A stretch of 64,000 nucleotides of DNA from Candidatus Poribacteria bacterium. GTDB lineage: Bacteria > Poribacteria > WGA-4E > WGA-3G. The position numbers and the translations under genes were made by a program. Numbering within the stretch: position 1 is the first letter of the stretch; each line of letters begins with the position of its first letter. Shown here piece after piece: positions 41,287 to 53,495 of this stretch. A model generated the notes under the pieces. It was not told the origin of the DNA. It ran no database searches and worked only from the letters and a program-made list of their open reading frames with translations. The stretch lies in the NCBI GenBank assembly GCA_965197475.1, contig CBDANF010000003.1, positions 2,400,001-2,464,000 of the forward strand, in the 5' to 3' direction.

Positions 41287-41462
41287 CAGGACTTACGCAT
41301 TTTCTCTTAAAGTCCCCCTGATAAGGGGGACTTAGGGGGTTAAAAACACGGAAATAACGACTTTGAACTGCGGGATGGACGCATAAGTGGTAGACTCCTT
41401 GATGGCATCTGCCAGTTTAACCCCCCTAACCCCCCTTATCAAGGGGGAATGCGTAAGTCCTG
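41287..41462. mobile_element. MITE with CAGGACTTACGCA TIRs (solo copy)
   Basis: Perfect 13-bp TIR; 5-bp duplication AAAAC at 41282-41286 and 41463-41467; internal CCCCC..GGGGG palindromes. Confidence 0.92.
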
Positions 41463-41471
41463 AAAACATTA

Positions 41472-41822
41472 TACCATTTCTAAGAGATTGTATTGCATTA
41501 TTCGTCCGTCGGGTAGCACTTGCGATACCCTTATGCGTCAAGTTTAGTGTTATGCGGTGGAAAAAATGGGCACCTCATGCAGCATGCCATAAGCGCATGC
41601 TGCCCCTCTGGGGCTTGGTAAACACAGACATCAGCTGCTGGACACCTCATGCAGCATGCCATAAGCGCATGCTGCCTCTCCGAAGCTATAGTCAATCGTA
41701 TTCAGCACCAGCGGTGCGGAAGGTGTATAGAAAAGTATACCACAAGAAACCAAGCACCAGCGGTGCGAAAGGTGTATGGTATAAAACAAGCTATTATGAT
41801 ATTTTGTCAATTAGATATGGTA
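41472..41822. mobile_element. MITE-like composite repeat with TACCAT termini (copy 2)
   Basis: Inverted homologue of 17499-17799 with one extra agcaccagcggtgcg unit; TTA at 41469-41471 and 41823-41825. Confidence 0.85.
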
Positions 41823-44197: not shown

Positions 44198-45214
44198 TTA
44201 TTGCTCCTTCGGTTTTCTCAAGAATCCGTAAACGCCTAAAGGCAGACAGTAAAGTAGAATAAGGATGTGTAAACTGAACCCCGTAACAGTGGCAATCTCC
44301 ATTGATGTGCCGAAATAATTCAAGAACCATGCAAACGGAAATTCCGTTGTTCCGAAGTTACCGACGGTCTGTATAGGCAAGAGGTTGAACCCGTTTGTAA
44401 ATGCAAGCGCGAAAAGCACTTCTATCAAAGGAATATCAACACCCATTTCGGCAATAAGATAACACTGAAACCCGAAGCGGATTGTGAGACAGAATAAAGA
44501 ATATCCCCAGACTTTCAGAAAGCGTAGATTGAACCGAAACGAGGTGATTTCATCAACGATTGTTACGCATTTGTTGACAAACCATGTAATTGGCGGTTTC
44601 TCCAGACGCAATAGTGGTTTGGCACAATTCTGGGCAAGGGATGCACAAAAATTTGGTGCGACGCACGCCAAAACTATTACCAATATTAGTCCTGATCCGA
44701 TGAGCAATGGCGTTAGGTAAAGCACTGTCCAAGAAAACTTACCACCCAGTTTCGGGAGCAGTAGCGTAGCCGTGGCAACCATCAAAGCGATTAACAACAC
44801 TAAGTCAATGACACTTGCCACCATTAGTGAGGCAATGCCCTGCGTTGCATCAACTTTTTGCCGCCGTTGCATTAGATATACATAAGAAATATCACCTGTC
44901 CGCATCGGTAGAAAATTGCCCCAAAAAGTGTGCAAGGCAAGGATAGGAAATATTTGATACACACTGGAATCTAAACCGAGTAATGTTCGGAACCGCAGTG
45001 TTTTTGCCAACACCAATAGACAATAACAACCGAACCCTATTAAAACCGCTTTAATTGAGAGCCTGCTAAGCGTTTCAGGTATCGCTTTAAGATCAATCTC
45101 TTTTAAAAGGAAAAATGAGATAACAACTGCTAAGCCGGTTGGTAAAGCAATTCTGAGAATCCGCTGGAGTCGCTTTTTGTTCAAAATATCCCTACCGTTG
45201 CGACTGAACATCAA
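44198..45214 (-). CDS. Lysylphosphatidylglycerol synthase TM-region (UPF0104 flippase-like) protein
   Basis: Multiple TM helices; GNFLPMRTGD; LLPIQTVGNFGTTE. Confidence 0.85.
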   Translation of the reverse strand: MMFSRNGRDILNKKRLQRILRIALPTGLAVVISFFLLKEIDLKAIPETLSRLSIKAVLIGFGCYCLLVLAKTLRFRTLLGLDSSVYQIFPILALHTFWGNFLPMRTGDISYVYLMQRRQKVDATQGIASLMVASVIDLVLLIALMVATATLLLPKLGGKFSWTVLYLTPLLIGSGLILVIVLACVAPNFCASLAQNCAKPLLRLEKPPITWFVNKCVTIVDEITSFRFNLRFLKVWGYSLFCLTIRFGFQCYLIAEMGVDIPLIEVLFALAFTNGFNLLPIQTVGNFGTTEFPFAWFLNYFGTSMEIATVTGFSLHILILLYCLPLGVYGFLRKPKEQ

Positions 45215-46061
45215 AATGATCTGAATAAACTTTCACGAGATCCCCTTTTCGAAAACCGGGTACAGCAGTGCCGCATTCCCTCGCTAAGCCTTCATAATCA
45301 ATATGCATCAACTTTTCTAATACACCAGTATTGTTCGCCTTCAAAAGAATCCACTGCTTATTTCGTTCACACTGTCTCTCATTAGCCTCTCTGCGGGAAT
45401 AATCTTGCCATCCTTGACAAGGGACAGCAAAATCAAAACTGTTTTGAAAGACTTTAAGTGCTGCTTGTGTATTGTTATACTGCCATATTTGAAAATCCTG
45501 ATGCCGTATAGGTAATGGTTTATGTTCACGCATATCTTGATGTTTGCTCGGTAAACGTGTCCATATCTGAAACTCAGTATTCACCGAAAATGATTTGCCA
45601 GAATCGAGATGGAAAGCATCTCTCGGCAACGCCAATTTGCTAATAAATCGCATGCTTTTTTCAAGCTGCTTATGGACGATATATTTTCTAAAGTTCACCG
45701 GGACAATAAAAGCGACAATATTCGCCAAAATAGCAGCATGGTTAAAGAAGGCTATCGCCATCTTCCCGCGTTTGCCAAATGGGGGATTGCCGACAATGAC
45801 GGTGCCTGTCGGCGGATATGGAAGGCTGGTAACCTCAAAAAAGTCTTGTGCGATTACATTTCTGCATTTAGGAAAAACGTCTATGCCCAATCTGCGGTGC
45901 TGGGGCAAGCATTTGAAAAACGCACCTGTGCCAGCAGAAGGTTCTACAAAGAACATATCGCTGGCAGTGCGGTTGACAGATGGAAGCGTTTCCAATAAGT
46001 ATTTCCAACACGATGCCGCGACTTCTTGCTTGGTATAAAATGGATTTAATGATCTTTCCAC
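45192..46061 (-). CDS. Amino (likely N6-adenine) DNA methyltransferase-like protein
   Basis: FYT, motif I VEPSAGTGAF, QDFF, motif IV GNPPFG, VAFIVP. Confidence 0.82.
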   Translation of the reverse strand: MERSLNPFYTKQEVAASCWKYLLETLPSVNRTASDMFFVEPSAGTGAFFKCLPQHRRLGIDVFPKCRNVIAQDFFEVTSLPYPPTGTVIVGNPPFGKRGKMAIAFFNHAAILANIVAFIVPVNFRKYIVHKQLEKSMRFISKLALPRDAFHLDSGKSFSVNTEFQIWTRLPSKHQDMREHKPLPIRHQDFQIWQYNNTQAALKVFQNSFDFAVPCQGWQDYSRREANERQCERNKQWILLKANNTGVLEKLMHIDYEGLARECGTAVPGFRKGDLVKVYSDHFDVQSQR

Positions 46062-46118: not shown

Positions 46119-46340
46119 GGAAAAAGGTGGGTTTAGTAGAGATATTCAGTTTTCAAGTTTTTCTAATCCAGAAGCGTGAGATTAAACTTCAAACAGGTTA
46201 AAAGAGGCGCAATGAATTGCGATTAAAAGCGTTTTCCATTAAATGGTACAAGGCAGGGCACAGGGACCCCGCCTTACAATGTTAAGAAGTCTATACCAAG
46301 TACGCGTGAGGCATCACCGGCAATGTCTATGTATTTCTAT

Positions 46341-46460
46341 CAGGACTTACGCAAATTGGGAGAAAAAGGAAGTATTGGACTTAAAAAGTCGTTATTTCGG
46401 TGTTTTTAACCCCTAAGTCCCCTTATCAAGGAGACTTTTGAACCTATTGCGTAAGTCCTA
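46341..46460. mobile_element. CAGGACTTACGCA-family MITE, left arm of the composite element
   Basis: caggacttacgca...tgcgtaagtccta (inner terminal base G>A); inverted homologue of 50493-50634. Confidence 0.88.
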
Positions 46461-46466
46461 TTTAAT

Positions 46467-46495
46467 TTGACTTTTTAGTCAAAACATGGTATTAT
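46467..46495 (+). promoter_or_regulatory. Sigma70 promoter
   Basis: TTGACT-N17-TATTAT, followed by AGGTGG and a mini-ORF MKTETH*. Confidence 0.6.
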
Positions 46496-46698
46496 GCAAT
46501 ATTAAACGGTAGGTGGATTTATGAAAACAGAAACACACTAAATGTGTGAAACATAATATTACATAAAAAGAACCTGCTAGCACAAGTCGTTACTATAGCA
46601 TTTTTTAGCATTTTTTGCGGAATTGTCCTGCTGATTTACGCATTTTTGGCGTTGAGTTATGCTAAATATGCTGATTCGGATCCTGATTCATTTTTTTA

Positions 46699-46727
46699 TT
46701 GCACAAATTTTGTATAATTGCTACAAT
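46699..46727 (+). promoter_or_regulatory. Sigma70 promoter ahead of the long leader
   Basis: TTGCAC-N17-TACAAT with TG extension. Confidence 0.6.
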
Positions 46728-46732
46728 ATATG

Positions 46733-47230
46733 TGACGTTAAAAATTCACGAAGGGCGCGTGGGTTACGTCAGGGCAGCTTCCTAATCTATTTAGGTGCGC
46801 CGCCGGTGCAGACACACCAAGCGACGCTTAGCACTGCCATAGAACCAGTATGACAGTGCTGGTTTCTATTATAGCAGAAAGCCACGCTTTTTGTTAGTTT
46901 AAAGTGGAAACCAGCTCCCTATAGGGACGAGTTGCCTGAAAATTCTTCTCTTTCGTTGACAGATGTGTTTGTCAACCCTTCCTGTAGACTGTCAAGTATA
47001 CACAACCCTGGTGTTATTTTAATTAACAGTCTAAATTTGAAATACACCCATAAATTATTATATATCACAACGAGTAGTAACTTATGCGTTTACATAAGTT
47101 AACAGAAACTTGTTGTTGCTACAGACAAAGCAATAACGATTCCACAGCATTTTGCTGTGGTTGCAACTTAACTACGGTATATTTTTGAATTACTCGGACA
47201 CTCGCCTACCAGGGACGAAAGTGTTTATTT
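46733..47230 (+). ncRNA. Candidate structured 5' leader or ncRNA
   Basis: Dense hairpins and long-range complementarities; no credible ORF; no Rfam family recognised by eye. Confidence 0.4.
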
Positions 47231-47274
47231 ATTCTTATAATTCACCGTAAAAACAGGAGGAAGCAAATTCTGCT

Positions 47275-48579
47275 ATGAAGTTACACAAATTTGGATTAAT
47301 GTGCATCGCGTTACTCGTTCTAATTCACAATGGAGTGGCGCAAGATTTTGAGATACAATATTTTGGGATACACGATCTTAATATATCAGGAATATTAGCA
47401 CCAAGCAGGGAAATTATTGAGACAGTATATGACAACAGAAGCATTGCTATGGGTAAGACAGCTATTACGACTGCAAATAGTAGTGCTGCAATCTTTTCAA
47501 ATCCATCTATTCTCGGTACGTTTTCCGATGGCCACGTCCATGTAGGTGGAAAACTCTTGTACGGAACAACCACGGATGAAGTTCTGAGTGAAAATGAGCG
47601 CGTTGAGTCCTATGAAGCTAGTTACTCACCGTTTCCAAATCGGTCATACCTGGGGTTTGCATTCCCTTATAAGTATGATAACCAATTCAAACTTGTGTTT
47701 GGTCTTGGGTATCAGCGGAATGAGGAACATAGGGGTGAAGTGGAAGCAATCGTGTTGGATGATCAGTGGTCGGACCAAAGGGGTACCATCGTGAAAACGC
47801 GTAAAACAATAACTGGAATCGCACAGACCCGTGGTGCATTGAGCACACTCACTCCAGGAGTCGCGCTTAATATCCATGATAGATATTTCTTTGGTGTAAC
47901 GCTCAATCGGACCGTTGGTGCAATTTTAGAAACGTTGGAATTGAAAAGTTCTAATCAACAAGAAAAAAGAGAGGCAGAGATAGAACAATCGGCTTTGTTC
48001 TTAAGAATTGGTGCTCTGGCTGAGGTAACTCCTGAACTCTCTATTGGGTTGACATACCGCCCAGAATTTGAATGGGAATTTGGAGAGGCTATCACGAAAA
48101 ACTATGTGAACGGTGAACTCGTTGATACGGATAGGGATCAAGACATTCGTGAGTTAACTATACCCGGTATGTGGGGAATCGGTGCGAAATATAAGGTTTC
48201 TCCAAAATTGGTATTAGCTGCGGAATTACAATCACGTCCGTATTCGGAACTTCAATGGAGCAGGGGTATTGAATATCAACAAATTATAGACGACGGGTAC
48301 AATGTTTCCGTTGGGGCAGAATTCCTTGAGCTCGGTTTTCCTATTCGGATTGGTGCATTTCGCGATGTGATTCCGTTCGTAGATGAGAACGACACTAACC
48401 CAATGGGCTTTGCCGGACTCACTGCGGGAATCGGTTCGCGCAGCGGAGAAAACTTCTCTTGGGATGCTTCGGTACTTTGGGGTAGATGGGAGCAAACGGT
48501 CAACGATAATGGCCAAAAATATTCTGAGAATCTCTTCCGTGTCGGTGTTTCTGGCACTTATCACTTCAAAGCGTTTTGA
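47275..48579 (+). CDS. Outer-membrane beta-barrel protein (FadL/PorV-like)
   Basis: Signal peptide; RSIAMG...AIFSNPS.L plug-like motif; amphipathic strands; terminal F; AGGAGG RBS. Confidence 0.75.
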   Translation: MKLHKFGLMCIALLVLIHNGVAQDFEIQYFGIHDLNISGILAPSREIIETVYDNRSIAMGKTAITTANSSAAIFSNPSILGTFSDGHVHVGGKLLYGTTTDEVLSENERVESYEASYSPFPNRSYLGFAFPYKYDNQFKLVFGLGYQRNEEHRGEVEAIVLDDQWSDQRGTIVKTRKTITGIAQTRGALSTLTPGVALNIHDRYFFGVTLNRTVGAILETLELKSSNQQEKREAEIEQSALFLRIGALAEVTPELSIGLTYRPEFEWEFGEAITKNYVNGELVDTDRDQDIRELTIPGMWGIGAKYKVSPKLVLAAELQSRPYSELQWSRGIEYQQIIDDGYNVSVGAEFLELGFPIRIGAFRDVIPFVDENDTNPMGFAGLTAGIGSRSGENFSWDASVLWGRWEQTVNDNGQKYSENLFRVGVSGTYHFKAF

Positions 48580-48656
48580 GGTGTAAGTATTAAAAGTTAA
48601 TGCGAGAGATGTTATCACACTGATAAACATTTTAAAATTTTTATGGAGGATTTAGA

Positions 48657-49712
48657 ATGAAAATTGGGTTGCCTTGGAAAATATCGACAATTATGTTAAT
48701 TCTCTGCTGTTTTTACGGATGCGGCGGTGATGATGGAGAGGATGGTAGTATCTCCGATTCAGGAGTGCAGACTGAGGACATCATTTCGACTATCACAATT
48801 GAGATAGTCAATAGCAAAGAATTAGAAGTAGGGAAAGAGGTGCAATGGCGGCTAAAAGCTGAACCTGCACCTACAACTGATTTAGCGATTTTGCTGGATG
48901 CTGGCGATTGGGTAATCATCCCTAAATCTGAGAATTACTCGAAAACGTTCATTTTTACGTTTTTGAGAAATAGTAACATCAGAGTTGAGCCGCTACCTGT
49001 GATATTTATCGTCGGTGAAGGTTCGGTGTTGGACCTTGACGAACTTCAAAAGTTTTTACCTACTGAGTCAATCGGCGGCACTACAATCCCGGAACACTAT
49101 GATTTCACTACATATAAAGTAGGAGAACCGTCACACATTTCTGTGGAAGTAAAGCGTGCAGCGTTTCTAAGTGCTACCCCCGCAGATGGACATCTCCCAG
49201 CTAACGGTAGTATCACCGTCAGCTTTACTGAGAACCCTGGTGGAGTAACAGCCAGTGTTGGGGATGTTACAGGCTCTGGTAAGACGCGGAAAATCACGGC
49301 ACCCGCTGATGGTTTCCCAATTGGTGCCCTTGCCCTTAATCTTACTTGGGAAAATGGGGGTGCTGATGGACATACGCTAAACTATACTGTCGTTGCCGCA
49401 GATCAAACACCGCCGGAAGTAATCGATAGTGATCCTAAAAACGGTGCTAAAAACTTAAACCCAGACAATGTGTTTGATGACGGTATTACGGTTACCTTCA
49501 GTGAACCTGTCACCGGAGATCTCATGCTAATGGATGGTGATGATGATGTCGGTTGGACATCCGTGGCTGATGGAAATACAATCATCCTCATAGGGAATGC
49601 TGGTCAAGAACTCAGCAACGAAACCGAATACAGAGTTGCTGGTGAAGTTATGGATGATGCTGGTAACGAAACTGAAGTCAGCATCACTTTTGTCACCGAA
49701 GCCAAGGAATGA
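48657..49712 (+). CDS. Lipoprotein with C-terminal Ig-like (SbsA/Big_5-like) domains
   Basis: Lipobox FYG-C; DQTPPEVIDSDPKNGA...ITVTFSEPV...DDAGN...ITFVT. Confidence 0.8.
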   Translation: MKIGLPWKISTIMLILCCFYGCGGDDGEDGSISDSGVQTEDIISTITIEIVNSKELEVGKEVQWRLKAEPAPTTDLAILLDAGDWVIIPKSENYSKTFIFTFLRNSNIRVEPLPVIFIVGEGSVLDLDELQKFLPTESIGGTTIPEHYDFTTYKVGEPSHISVEVKRAAFLSATPADGHLPANGSITVSFTENPGGVTASVGDVTGSGKTRKITAPADGFPIGALALNLTWENGGADGHTLNYTVVAADQTPPEVIDSDPKNGAKNLNPDNVFDDGITVTFSEPVTGDLMLMDGDDDVGWTSVADGNTIILIGNAGQELSNETEYRVAGEVMDDAGNETEVSITFVTEAKE

Positions 49713-49755
49713 TCAAATTCACAATATCTCACTTTATTTTTAGGAGGAAACTAAC

Positions 49756-50361
49756 ATGATACAACGATTCAGCAATTCAATTATCTGCATTGTCATCTTC
49801 GTAACGTTAATCAGTCTCATAATGAGTTGCGGAAGTGATGACGATCAGGTAATTATAACTGAAAACCATCTTCCGATTGCAGTCGGAAACTTTTGGACCT
49901 TCATAGATATAGATCCTGGATACTTCAATGATGATTCAGGATCTATCTTCATCACAGGGACAACAAAGTTGTCCAATGGCAAAACTGCATTCATTGCCGA
50001 GGTAACAGATGAATATGGAAATGATAGAGGTTATCTGTCCCGGGCAGCTAACGATCTTTTGCTGTTCCATAAAGCGTTAAACGATCTTCAAGGAGAGTTG
50101 ATTTATAGCCCACCGATTAAGGTTGGCACAACGTGGCAAGGACGTGAAGGTGAGGCAGAAGTTATAGTTCAAGAAACTGTCAACACACCCGCAGGAATTT
50201 TTCAAAACTGCTTTCGTATCAATGTACGCGTTGTTGATGATAATGACTATTACTCAATCTGGCTTGCCAAAGATGTTGGTCCCGTCAAATTAGCGGTGAT
50301 TGATACTCGAGATGGAGAAATTGAGTCAACCATTGTTCTTGAGAAATTCAACGCAAAATAA
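49756..50361 (+). CDS. Lipoprotein, beta-rich (DUF3108/TapB-like)
   Basis: Lipobox IMS-C; PIAVGNFW, ETVNTPAGIF..C, WLAKDVGPVK. Confidence 0.75.
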   Translation: MIQRFSNSIICIVIFVTLISLIMSCGSDDDQVIITENHLPIAVGNFWTFIDIDPGYFNDDSGSIFITGTTKLSNGKTAFIAEVTDEYGNDRGYLSRAANDLLLFHKALNDLQGELIYSPPIKVGTTWQGREGEAEVIVQETVNTPAGIFQNCFRINVRVVDDNDYYSIWLAKDVGPVKLAVIDTRDGEIESTIVLEKFNAK

Positions 50362-50365
50362 TCTT

Positions 50366-50413
50366 TTGTAAAGCTCAGAGTCTCTTGAGGTTCTGAGCTT
50401 TACAACGTTGTTT
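50366..50413 (+). terminator. Rho-independent terminator-like hairpin
   Basis: 14-bp stem ttgtaaagctcaga / tctgagctttacaa right after the stop, with a T-rich tail. Confidence 0.7.
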
Positions 50414-50492
50414 TGTTAACTCTTGCAAGGTGATGATTTCTCTCAACTTAATCTAAGGGAGATATACAATGCACAAAGTAATCCAATACAGC

Positions 50493-50634
50493 CAGGACTT
50501 ACGCAATAGGTTCAAAAATCCCCTTGATAAAGGGAAGGGTCCCCATAGCGTATGGGGTGAGGGGGTTAAAATACCGAAATAACGACTTTTTAAATCCAAT
50601 ATTTCCTTTTTCTACTCAATTTGTGTAAGTCCTG
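50493..50634. mobile_element. CAGGACTTACGCA-family MITE, right arm of the composite element
   Basis: caggacttacgca...tgtgtaagtcctg. Confidence 0.88.
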
Positions 50635-50635
50635 T

Positions 50636-51373
50636 CTATGAAAGCCCATCCCAATATTTCCACATATCTTCAGGGGTTTCAAACTTAATCTCATGTAAAT
50701 CTCTCCTACTGTACCTACCGATGAGCGCGATTCTGACGTTGCGTCCGCAATTCGGACCGGCGGTATGACTCATCTGATGATGCCAGAAACAGACATCACC
50801 TGCCTCACCCGTGAATTCATAACTCGGTCCCAAATCAAACGGAGCAACGCCACCGGGAAGGCTATCAAGGTCGTGGTATCTGAAGTATTCTGCCCAGATA
50901 CGATGGCTTCCAGGCCAGATTGTAAACCCGCCACCTTGTTTCTCAACTGTGTCAAGATATACGGTCGCGCCAAGCGTGAATGCACCGACAGTGCCTTTAG
51001 GAACACCGTTATGAGGGGTGTGGTAGCCGTCTAAGTGTCCAAGCGGTTCGCGCCATTCTCTGTCGGGGTCAGGAAAATTGAGATGCGGCCCCGCACCGCC
51101 GCCCGTATTCAGTTTTCCTTCACCGACCATCTCCTCTGCCATTGCGAAGACATTGTTACCATAGATTGTTCCCTTGATAACACCCTCACCGCCGATAGGA
51201 GCGGTGCGATATCCCTTGCGAGTCCAAGATTCAGGATCGTTCCTATCTTCGTCAATTGACTCCCAAACTCTATCCAATGCGGCATCAATTTCTTGCTGAC
51301 TAAGCGCGCCGCGCACAACCAGATAGCCGTTCTCTTTGAAAAATTCTTTGTCTGTGTCTGTTAACAAAGACAT
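50636..51373 (-). CDS. PhyH-family dioxygenase-like protein
   Basis: FFKENGYLV, GHLDG, GGFTIWPGSH, GDVCFWH..MSH; start probably ATG 51373. Confidence 0.85.
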   Translation of the reverse strand: MSLLTDTDKEFFKENGYLVVRGALSQQEIDAALDRVWESIDEDRNDPESWTRKGYRTAPIGGEGVIKGTIYGNNVFAMAEEMVGEGKLNTGGGAGPHLNFPDPDREWREPLGHLDGYHTPHNGVPKGTVGAFTLGATVYLDTVEKQGGGFTIWPGSHRIWAEYFRYHDLDSLPGGVAPFDLGPSYEFTGEAGDVCFWHHQMSHTAGPNCGRNVRIALIGRYSRRDLHEIKFETPEDMWKYWDGLS

Positions 51374-51536
51374 AATTTTTGTTCCTTTTATTATATGGGG
51401 AAATTCCATTATATCTTGAAATAATTTTAGTTCTATATAACGAAATATTTACTGCAGTCTGATGTTTCACATCTTTTGGTCTTATCTTAGTGTAAATCAA
51501 TACGTCGATTAGACTGGTATATGAGGTATAGGTCTT

Positions 51537-52508
51537 TCATTCCAATTCAAATAATAACAATTGTTCAGGATCATGCTGCTTTGCAAGAGAGATAACATCC
51601 ACCGTTTTACTCGAAATCTGTTCATCAATCTGTTCTGCACCATTAACTGGGTCAAGGCTAATACCATCTAACTCAATCAGCGAGGTATTACCCTTTGGTG
51701 GATTGTCAAGATAGCTTGGATCAAGTACGAAGAGTGGTAGACCCATCTTGAGAGCCGTTTTTGCGGCATTGAAAGTCCCACTCATTTTACCTTGTTCGTC
51801 TCGCTCAGGTCCTGATTCAATTACAACGACTGCTTTGGAGAGAGCACACACCAATTTATTCCGAATCATTGCGTTGCGCGCAAGCCATTTCACAGATGGA
51901 TTAAATTGTGACACTGCCAAAATATTTTGTTTCCAGTTGAATTCCTTGAATGCCTTTTTCTGATGTAATTCTTTGATGCCGTAAGGCAGCACGATTGTAG
52001 TTGTTCCTTCTGCTTCTAAAGCTCCTAAGTGTGCTTCTGAGTCAACCCCTTTAGCATATCCGGAAACTACATTTCTACCTAATCGCGCAAGATCACCAGC
52101 AAGTTTTCTCGCAATACCAATTCCTTTATTGGACACATTCCTTGATCCAATAATTGCTACACTATCCGAATTAAGATATTTTCTTTGTCCTTTGATGAAC
52201 AAAATCGGGGTTATTTCAAGAATATTTGATGGGAAATTAGGATGTCCTGGGTAGATAATTTCTACTTCCAATCTTTTTAGTTGCTTATACTCCCCTAACA
52301 CCTCCTCTCTGTCCTCTTCACGGATTTTACTATTCAAGATTTTAGCCAAATCGGGAAAATGAACAGATAGGTCGTTTTGGTTACACGGCAACATTTCAGG
52401 ATCAAGTTGCTGTGTTTCCAATATCTTGGAAATTGATACGAGAAGTTTCGGACCTACGCCGCGTGTCTTAAAGAGTCGGAACCAAAAATAATCTATGTCA
52501 ATTCTCAT
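51537..52508 (-). CDS. DprA/Smf-family protein
   Basis: VAIIGSR, VVSGYAKGVDSEAH, RNKLVCALS, SGTFNAA; no C-terminal wHTH visible. Confidence 0.92.
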   Translation of the reverse strand: MRIDIDYFWFRLFKTRGVGPKLLVSISKILETQQLDPEMLPCNQNDLSVHFPDLAKILNSKIREEDREEVLGEYKQLKRLEVEIIYPGHPNFPSNILEITPILFIKGQRKYLNSDSVAIIGSRNVSNKGIGIARKLAGDLARLGRNVVSGYAKGVDSEAHLGALEAEGTTTIVLPYGIKELHQKKAFKEFNWKQNILAVSQFNPSVKWLARNAMIRNKLVCALSKAVVVIESGPERDEQGKMSGTFNAAKTALKMGLPLFVLDPSYLDNPPKGNTSLIELDGISLDPVNGAEQIDEQISSKTVDVISLAKQHDPEQLLLFELE

Positions 52509-52557
52509 CTTTATGTCCTTCTGTTAGTGAGCGTTAGGATTTCTAAAATTTGCAACT

Positions 52558-53199
52558 TTAACTTCCACTTGTCCGCGTCCGCGTGAGTGTTAGAACAAGC
52601 ACATGCCGAACACTACCCTGATCATAAAGGGCGTTGGTGACTTCGGTTAAAGTTGTTCCAGAATCAAAGAGATCATCAAACAGCAACACACACTGATCTT
52701 TGAACTCTTGGTTGTGAACAACAAACACCCCTTGAAGTTGTTCACGTTTTCTTTCTACGTCCGGAATATTTTTAAGGGGTAGCGTCTGTTTTACTTTCTT
52801 CAGATAATCAGTGTGAACCGGCAGCCCAAGCAGTTTTCCTACCTCTCGTGCGATTTCGGTAACAGGTTGAAAATCCCTATTTGTGTCTGAGATCGGGATG
52901 GGAATAATTGCCTTCAAATATGGGAGAACAGGATACCCATCAACGGCAAATTCTTGTATAACAAATTGAGCTGCGGTTTCAGCTATCGGTTGGATCTTGC
53001 TTCTATCATTGTTGTACTTTACCTGATAAACCAATTCACCAAGTTCAGTCCGATCCGTGTCATATCCTCCATCTGGTAAAGGACGACTTGATATCGTGTG
53101 AATATCCAAAGCCCATCCAGATCGCCAATTTCCGTGAATTTTTTGCGGATTGATATTCAAGAATTGATCAATAGAGTTTGGGACTTCACAAAGAAACAC
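52558..53199 (-). CDS. ComF-like phosphoribosyltransferase-domain protein
   Basis: GWALDIHT, ELGELVYQVKY, IIPIP, PRPP loop VLLFDDLFDSGTT. Confidence 0.88.
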   Translation of the reverse strand: MFLCEVPNSIDQFLNINPQKIHGNWRSGWALDIHTISSRPLPDGGYDTDRTELGELVYQVKYNNDRSKIQPIAETAAQFVIQEFAVDGYPVLPYLKAIIPIPISDTNRDFQPVTEIAREVGKLLGLPVHTDYLKKVKQTLPLKNIPDVERKREQLQGVFVVHNQEFKDQCVLLFDDLFDSGTTLTEVTNALYDQGSVRHVLVLTLTRTRTSGS

Positions 53200-53284
53200 T
53201 GTGCTATCCTAACTTACACATCATTTATCATTTTCTGTAGGGTACCACAAAGTGGCTATGAAGTCAACTTTTTTATATTAATTG

Positions 53285-53485
53285 GGAGTGTAGATTTTAT
53301 GTCATGAAGCGTAAGGTTGCCCTTTGTCTGACCAGGATTTCATATCAACGCGGTATCTCCAACCGAATCAACGCTAAATGCGCGTACGGTATTTAGCGTT
53401 GATTCGGTTGGACAAATTACCGTTTCTGTTTCCAGTCCATAATCCGCGTAAAACCACGATTCAGATTACAAAATATCTACATTCC
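53285..53485. repeat. Palindromic miniature element with a 22-bp perfect hairpin
   Basis: Stem 53358-53379 / 53391-53412; outer ggagtgtagat / atctacattcc. Confidence 0.6.
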
Positions 53486-53495
53486 ACTTTTATAT

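Follow-up and report, generated by a model that had tools for sequence, protein, structure and literature searches.

Bacterial composite transposons such as Tn5 and Tn10 have at least one arm that encodes the transposase. The mobile insertion cassettes (MICs) of Bacillus lack a transposase gene, carry passenger genes and are moved in trans, with one pair of inverted repeats placed directly around the passengers. Composite transposons bounded by insertion sequences (IS) are described in general terms in a review (PMC10969869). Composites made from two miniature elements are also established. [quoted passage not shown] Such MITE-bounded composites have been documented mostly for clinical resistance genes and for Tn3-derived plasmid elements. 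Here we describe a 4,294-bp unit in a 64,000-nucleotide stretch (the window; contig 3, 2400001-2464000) of a metagenome-assembled genome (MAG; 5.7 Mb, 3 contigs) from Candidatus Poribacteria. Two inverted MITEs, MITE_L and MITE_R, bracket 4,032 bp that contain three surface-protein genes. We consider it highly probable that the whole is a MITE-bounded composite transposon, with arms of an IS701-family MITE, that was moved in trans; it works like the established composites, with IS701-family ends and partner.

As in Tn5 and Tn10, the terminal elements are inverted, the outermost ends are the ones used and the duplication lies around the whole, whereas neither arm here encodes a transposase. In contrast to the MICs, each end is a complete two-ended MITE. 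The likeness to the TIME-COMP elements is closer: two miniature non-autonomous elements, in either orientation, bracket 2-4 kb of genes unrelated to transposition, and the duplication is 5 bp and AT-rich (PMC4133298). However, the TIME-COMP arms are 262-bp Tn3-family derivatives with 38-bp inverted repeats, whereas the arms here are 120-142 bp long with 13-bp ends and an IS701-family partner; in addition, the host is an uncultured poribacterium and movement is deduced from one insertion and its empty site. With neither the 38-bp repeats nor a Tn3-family transposase of the Tn3-derived TIME elements, the unit is a non-member that acts alike. With the Acinetobacter integrons it shares a MITE pair (identical there) around a block that was apparently inserted as a unit; the cargo there is an integron with resistance cassettes, located on a plasmid or a chromosome in bacteria from clinical and sewage sources, whereas this unit carries envelope genes on a symbiont chromosome and no resistance gene (PMC3934969, PMC10969869). 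A limited literature search found no paper on Poribacteria that deals with a MITE, a transposase or an insertion sequence, and we do not claim that the element is unpublished. The unit and its immediate flanks comprise the following features.

45192-46061, minus strand: type II DNA methyltransferase-like gene, left flank
46336-46340: TCTAT, left copy of the 5-bp target-site duplication, where relatives have one copy
46341-46460: MITE_L, 120 bp, with a perfect outer end (CAGGACTTACGCA) and the inner end TAGGACTTACGCA
47275-48579, plus strand: gene for an outer-membrane beta-barrel protein (OMP), 434 aa, with a signal peptide
48657-49712, plus strand: lipoprotein gene (351 aa; lipobox, ...FYGC; Ig-like domain of the Big_5 type)
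49756-50361, plus strand: lipoprotein gene (201 aa; lipobox, ...IMSC; weak DUF3108-like match)
50366-50405, plus strand: terminator-like hairpin with an 18-pair stem, 3´ of the last cargo gene
50455-50492, plus strand: AAGGGAG resembling a ribosome-binding site, plus ATG (AAGGGAGATATACAATG at 50455-50471), opening an open reading frame (ORF) that MITE_R cuts after 8 codons
50493-50634: MITE_R, 142 bp, inverted relative to MITE_L, with the outer end CAGGACTTACACA
50536-50519, minus strand: terminator-like hairpin inside MITE_R
50635-50639: TCTAT, right copy of the duplication, which includes the PhyH stop codon CTA (50636-50638, minus strand)
50636-51409, minus strand: PhyH-family dioxygenase gene, right flank, ORF intact

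The termini of the MITE family read CAGGACTTACGCA or a one-base variant of it, and both MITEs are two-ended. Over its full length MITE_L can be aligned with MITE_R in reverse complement, with identity at 109 of its 120 positions and about 22 extra internal bases in MITE_R, which bears out the original prediction of an inverted homologous pair. Further predictions, that neither MITE has a duplication of its own and that both outer flanks read TCTAT, agree with the flank sequences: the inner flanks, TTTAA and ACAGC, differ, and the duplication therefore surrounds the unit and neither MITE singly. The overlap of the duplication with the PhyH stop codon was likewise as predicted, and the solo member of the family at 41287-41462 has the expected AAAAC on both sides as its own 5-bp duplication. 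The left inner end had been called mutated. It does read TAGGACTTACGCA, a T variant, although this is a weak sign of a dead end, as the T variant is common in the family: at least one such terminus occurs in 24 of 89 elements, and 10 of those 24 retain a duplication. For that reason we rejected the T-variant terminus as proof that the inner end was inactivated.

To place the pair within its family, the genome was scanned with the 13-base terminus pattern, allowing up to 2 mismatches. The scan gave 331 matches in the genome and 7 in the window, against 0.99 expected. These termini define 89 two-ended elements, of which 84 are of MITE size and 5 are 1,090-1,092 bp long. An exact 5-bp duplication flanks 57 of the 89 (53 of the 84 MITE-size elements), an exact 6-bp duplication flanks 10 and 22 have none; the duplicated 5-mers are AT-rich. 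When the left flank of one member was compared with the right flank of another, 28 of 7,832 non-self pairs matched at 5/5 positions, a chance rate of 0.36%. An outer 5-mer is shared by three of the 42 neighbouring pairs with a spacing below 30 kb, and the pair studied here is alone in having no duplication on either member. In the remaining two pairs, whose loci are tandem duplicates of each other, no element lacks a duplication of its own. The search for further MITE pairs of this kind, suggested together with the original prediction, thus yielded no second case among the 42 pairs in the genome.

The insertion site was compared with the PhyH locus of related genomes. An orthologue of PhyH is present in all 40 relatives searched, and the 14 kb around the gene were taken from 20 same-genus genomes, with tblastn for gene content (below, genomes have G numbers and loci L numbers). 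These comparators are other species, not strains, and their PhyH is 83-92% identical. In the direction of PhyH the window reads ...GGGCTTTC ATAGA (unit) ATAGA AATACATAGACATTGCC..., and G022 reads ...GGGCTTTC ATAGA AACACATAGACATTCGG...; downstream of ATAGA, G022 continues with AACACATAGACATT and the window, past the unit and the second ATAGA, with AATACATAGACATT. Five of the 20 loci (G022, G017, G014, G012 and G002) have this empty-site form, CTTTC[A/G]TAGA[A/G]ACACATA at the PhyH end. Since the relatives' site holds one 5-mer, removal of the unit and exactly one ATAGA restores their sequence. The empty site with a single TCTAT/ATAGA that the original prediction proposed to look for in relatives is therefore present in five same-genus genomes, and the opposite finding, relatives with the three genes here and no MITEs, was made at none of the 20 PhyH loci, where tblastn detected no cargo gene.

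Gene order around the site agrees in part. The lysyl-phosphatidylglycerol-synthase-like gene of the left flank lies downstream of PhyH in 10 of the 20 loci, and in 5 of those 10 the methyltransferase-like gene stands between the two, as it does in the window. The methyltransferase-like gene is on the stop side of PhyH in 5 of the 20, and the gap between the two is narrowest, about 130 bp, in G021 and widest, about 4.2 kb, in G005. In G024 and G021 a terminator hairpin is located about 40-80 bases past the PhyH stop, like the one now to the left of MITE_L. In 10 of the 20 loci (L017, L019-L023, L025, L030, L031 and L034, listed as variable) the downstream genes are wholly different, and the spot downstream of PhyH is a rearrangement hot spot, since synteny breaks in 10 of 20 genomes. 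The 4.2 kb of G005 (L027) contain three genes with signal-peptide-like protein starts. In G013 (L019, contig 15) the position just past the PhyH stop is occupied, as in the window, by a MITE of this family, there truncated (TCATAAA|TAGGACTTACGCA); since the other kind of MITE end faces PhyH, the spot seems to have been hit independently.

A candidate source of the transposase is present in the same genome. As IS copies, the five long elements share the CAGGACTTACGCA ends of the MITEs (13 bp identical), are 99.6-100% identical to each other and encode a transposase that matches Pfam DDE_5 and NCBIfam NF049921 (IS701 family) over profile positions 4-317 of 318. In two copies, of 1,090-1,091 bp, the ORF is uninterrupted and reaches 360.9 bits with the NF049921 model (cut-off 250; contig 2, 1074877-1075848, and contig 3, 1971128-1972099); these two are near-identical to the broken copies. 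Four of the five full-length copies have an exact 5-bp duplication. Members of the IS701 family generate a target duplication of 4-5 bp according to ISfinder descriptions. With a DDE transposase that matches the family profile and a short duplication, the partner has the characters of this family, and the search for an IS with MITE-type ends that had been proposed thus found two intact IS701-family transposase genes. The three broken copies (contig 3, 74118-75209, 2306928-2308019 and 2856427-2857518) are 100% identical to each other, lie at different sites and each have their own 5-bp duplication; the broken form may be moved in trans, or its frame may be recoded.

Taken together, two two-ended copies bracket the cargo, no transposase is encoded inside, the duplication is on the outside only, relatives have the empty site and an autonomous partner exists, which are the characters of a composite. 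In the transposition that we propose, the transposase of one of the two intact 1.09-kb IS copies, with its same 13-bp ends, would act in trans and would pair the outermost termini of two MITEs separated by about 4 kb, in place of both ends of one MITE. The whole 4,294-bp unit (MITE_L, a repeat-rich region, the three genes, the terminator, the 8-codon gene start and MITE_R) would then have moved and landed on the PhyH stop codon, where repair of a 5-bp staggered cut would have produced the TCTAT duplication. We infer the catalysis itself, and at the same level stand the choice between cut-and-paste and copying, that between this genome and an ancestor or donor strain, and the place of the donor site. 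The original prediction of one MITE-cargo-MITE transposition with a 5-bp duplication is supported by the empty site, the flanks and the duplication habit of the family.

Several observations weigh against this interpretation. The right outer end of the unit reads CAGGACTTACACA and thus has a mismatch. The local sequence is rich in TCTAT, with a second copy at 46326-46330 in the window and three near the site in G024, so that a coincidental match of the flanks is likelier than the genome-wide 0.36%. The bases after the PhyH stop are not alignable in 15 of the 20 comparators. Three of the five IS copies (1,092 bp each) are frameshifted and split into two frames at one common place. The unit is present once in the genome, and blastn of the cargo against the whole genome returned only repeat pieces and distant paralogues, with no second copy or donor site; its movement is accordingly read from one insertion, and no second site at which the unit could be seen to have moved turned up, whether in this genome, in the species-representative collection or among 39 other genomes of the genus. 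The estimated contamination of the MAG is 6.97%, and neither junction is read-verified: no contig listed in the public runs X1-X4 (two studies) joins across the unit or bridges a junction. These runs are stored as contigs that break at repeats and are therefore uninformative on whether the site is filled or empty in the population. An exact 26-mer of the left flank had no match in JGI metagenome contigs.

These points bear on three other explanations. The block could have been inserted by another route, after which two MITEs landed separately at its borders and the TCTAT match arose by coincidence. The 22 of 89 family members with no exact duplication, the recurrence of TCTAT near the site in the window and G024, and the hot spot past the PhyH stop, where G013 has a MITE end of the same family, are compatible with such a history. 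It requires three coincidences, however, namely two insertions at the exact borders, the lack of a duplication at both and a 5/5 match of the flanks (0.36% genome-wide), and it has to accommodate a block with no integrase or other insertion signature and a site that turns into the relatives' sequence once the unit and one ATAGA are removed; we regard it as highly improbable. An artefact of assembly, in which a MITE-flanked segment was threaded through a single true MITE at the PhyH stop, is suggested by the roughly 100 copies of the MITE repeat, the contamination estimate and the unverified junctions. A single MITE would offer two different ends, though, whereas the unit, in which MITE_L is the reverse complement of MITE_R, has one kind of end on both of its outer sides; an exact duplication is not expected from a mis-join, and the 3-contig assembly suggests long reads that span 142-bp repeats. 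This makes the artefact extremely improbable.

It is also conceivable that the composite hopped in another strain or species and that the allele arrived by homologous recombination through the conserved flanks. Several Poribacteria species share the samples behind X1-X4, and in these runs there is a related population, at greater abundance, whose gene order from 47078 on is that of the window and whose identity is about 92-94%; for PhyH contigs with comparable depth in X2, identity is only about 90-91%. The four contigs of this variant that reach the right end all cease to match at 50491, two bases before MITE_R, and continue for 37, 715, 958 and 958 bases unlike the window (both 958-base ones come from one sample). 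With a right junction that differs, the related population does not have this composite allele, and the import is an extra step that is not required and that would alter the place of transposition, not the nature of the element; such an import seems very unlikely to us. For the composite transposon itself, the break at 50491 is what would be expected if MITE_R marks the border of a captured segment, with native DNA continuing beyond it in the variant. Two other rearrangements were rejected from the arrangement of the arms. Inversion by recombination between the two MITEs would put ATAGA on their inner sides, which is not observed, and integration of a circle by recombination would yield direct arms, whereas the arms here are inverted.

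The composite extends gene capture to an IS701-family MITE, to the chromosome of an uncultured sponge symbiont and to surface-protein genes. The patchy occurrence of envelope genes across Poribacteria gains a concrete mechanism from it, and it is a well-defined substrate for IS701-family transposition in trans, with the ends, the duplication and an intact transposase gene all known. The general understanding of such elements is unchanged by this case.

The cargo was predicted to be a self-contained operon. The beta-barrel gene, the two lipoprotein genes, the terminator and promoter-like sites are present as predicted, whereas the supposed long leader is a mosaic of repeats and the genes are unlinked in representative genomes. 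The matches of the barrel to FadL/TodX (Toluene_X) and BamG-like profiles are weak, all under the curated cut-offs. Domain searches of four ORFs (the three cargo genes and PhyH) detected no transposase domain. The truncated gene start at the right border also proved to be as predicted, with a sequence like a ribosome-binding site and an ATG whose ORF enters MITE_R after 8 codons. For the stretch of 93 bases that precedes MITE_R (50400-50492), the 39 other genus genomes offer no convincing match; the one hit is 30 bases long (E 0.0096).

A search of 40 genus genomes for the OMP returned homologues in 9, with 72% as the highest identity, and none adjoins the two lipoprotein genes. Homologues of the last lipoprotein were found at seven loci of the species-representative collection (best 79%), none with an OMP gene; the one exception to unlinked cargo homologues is L059, with a Big_5-like gene after the lipoprotein gene. 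A query of JGI metagenome contigs with the lipoprotein gave 171 pattern hits and no relative. In G020, the 79% homologue stands between a gene resembling a type IX secretion system (T9SS) tail and tRNA/serS genes, and the DNA homology (85%) extends from the stop of the Big_5 gene to just beyond the terminator. The window genome has other genes at the syntenic place; there (contig 3, 1737216-1738990), two tandem paralogous small ORFs and a MITE-like palindrome lie beside two tRNA genes and serS. The three cargo genes are not a conserved module among the representative genomes examined. Of the expectation that the cargo would turn up in other contexts, what held is that OMP and lipoprotein homologues exist elsewhere; as a three-gene set they were never seen in representative genomes.

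The 814 bp between MITE_L and the first gene (46461-47274) are a mosaic of repeat families in place of a plain 5´ untranslated region, with the following features.

46467-46495, plus strand: promoter-like site at the start of the cargo (TTGACT-17-TATTAT with TG), recognized by consensus match only
46512-46597: 85-bp repeat of a separate family, with at most 11 matches per genome in the genus
46606-47134, plus strand: repeat of about 530 bp that includes, at 46700-46727, a promoter-like box and, at 46720-47065, about 330 nt rich in hairpins
contig 3, 72282-72810; contig 3, 1198501-1198962; contig 2, 4318-4843: the other copies of the 530-bp repeat

The 85-bp repeat is possibly the end of another insertion sequence, as its copies are often at contig ends. 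The four copies of the 530-bp repeat in this genome are 91-95% identical, and matches to it occur in 37 of 40 genus genomes and 57 of 73 sampled genomes of the same family, with none in 47 genomes from three other families of the order. The repeat consists of a near-invariant promoter-like box, followed by about 330 nt of conserved hairpins with variable loops. In these hairpins 96.7% of cells are paired, compared with 33-42% when the partners are slid, and only three pairs covary. An Rfam search gave nothing above chance in 46200-50700, the 530-bp repeat included. Several copies lie upstream of exported-protein genes, and others precede a methylase-like or transposase-like gene. A structured RNA so far undescribed and a mobile promoter module are both possible identities of the repeat.

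It had further been proposed that MITE pairs move envelope modules in this lineage via a transposase in trans. The intact transposase gene agrees with this, and the lineage-wide part is unproven, with one event known for this family. A broader reading would make pairs of IS701-type MITEs a regular vehicle of envelope-gene capture in this Poribacteria family, with a preference for sites past stop codons and with cargo that carries a portable expression module, the 530-bp repeat, which has several copies per genome and is confined to this family. The signs taken for a stop-codon preference are the hit past the PhyH stop in G013 and, in G045 and G016, MITE ends no more than about 15 bases from the stops of OMP homologues. 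We consider this broader reading doubtful.

Some smaller features of the window adjoin the elements discussed. Directly to the right of the solo MITE are two short tandem duplications, at 41567-41687 (49-nt units, 72 bp apart) and 41704-41777 (25-nt units, 49 bp apart), the former of which includes the palindrome GCAGCATGC...GCATGCTGC. Beyond PhyH, the minus strand at 51537-53199 has a DprA-like gene, which fits the PsyrA/ShosA model, and a phosphoribosyltransferase gene, which fits the PsyrT/ShosT model. PsyrTA and Shosta are anti-phage toxin-antitoxin systems. The pair is contained within about 2.1 kb (51391-53487) that separate PhyH from an enolase-superfamily gene in the window genome only; the enolase-family gene adjoins PhyH in 19 of the 20 relatives, and none of the 20 has the pair there. 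At the edge of this PsyrTA-like insertion (about 53320-53480) lies a member of a second palindromic MITE-like family, with ends like TGTCTGAACCAGGATT, which is also found in the spacer between PhyH and the methyltransferase-like gene of G020 (L018, 10907-11659) and at the serS-side variable site of the window genome.

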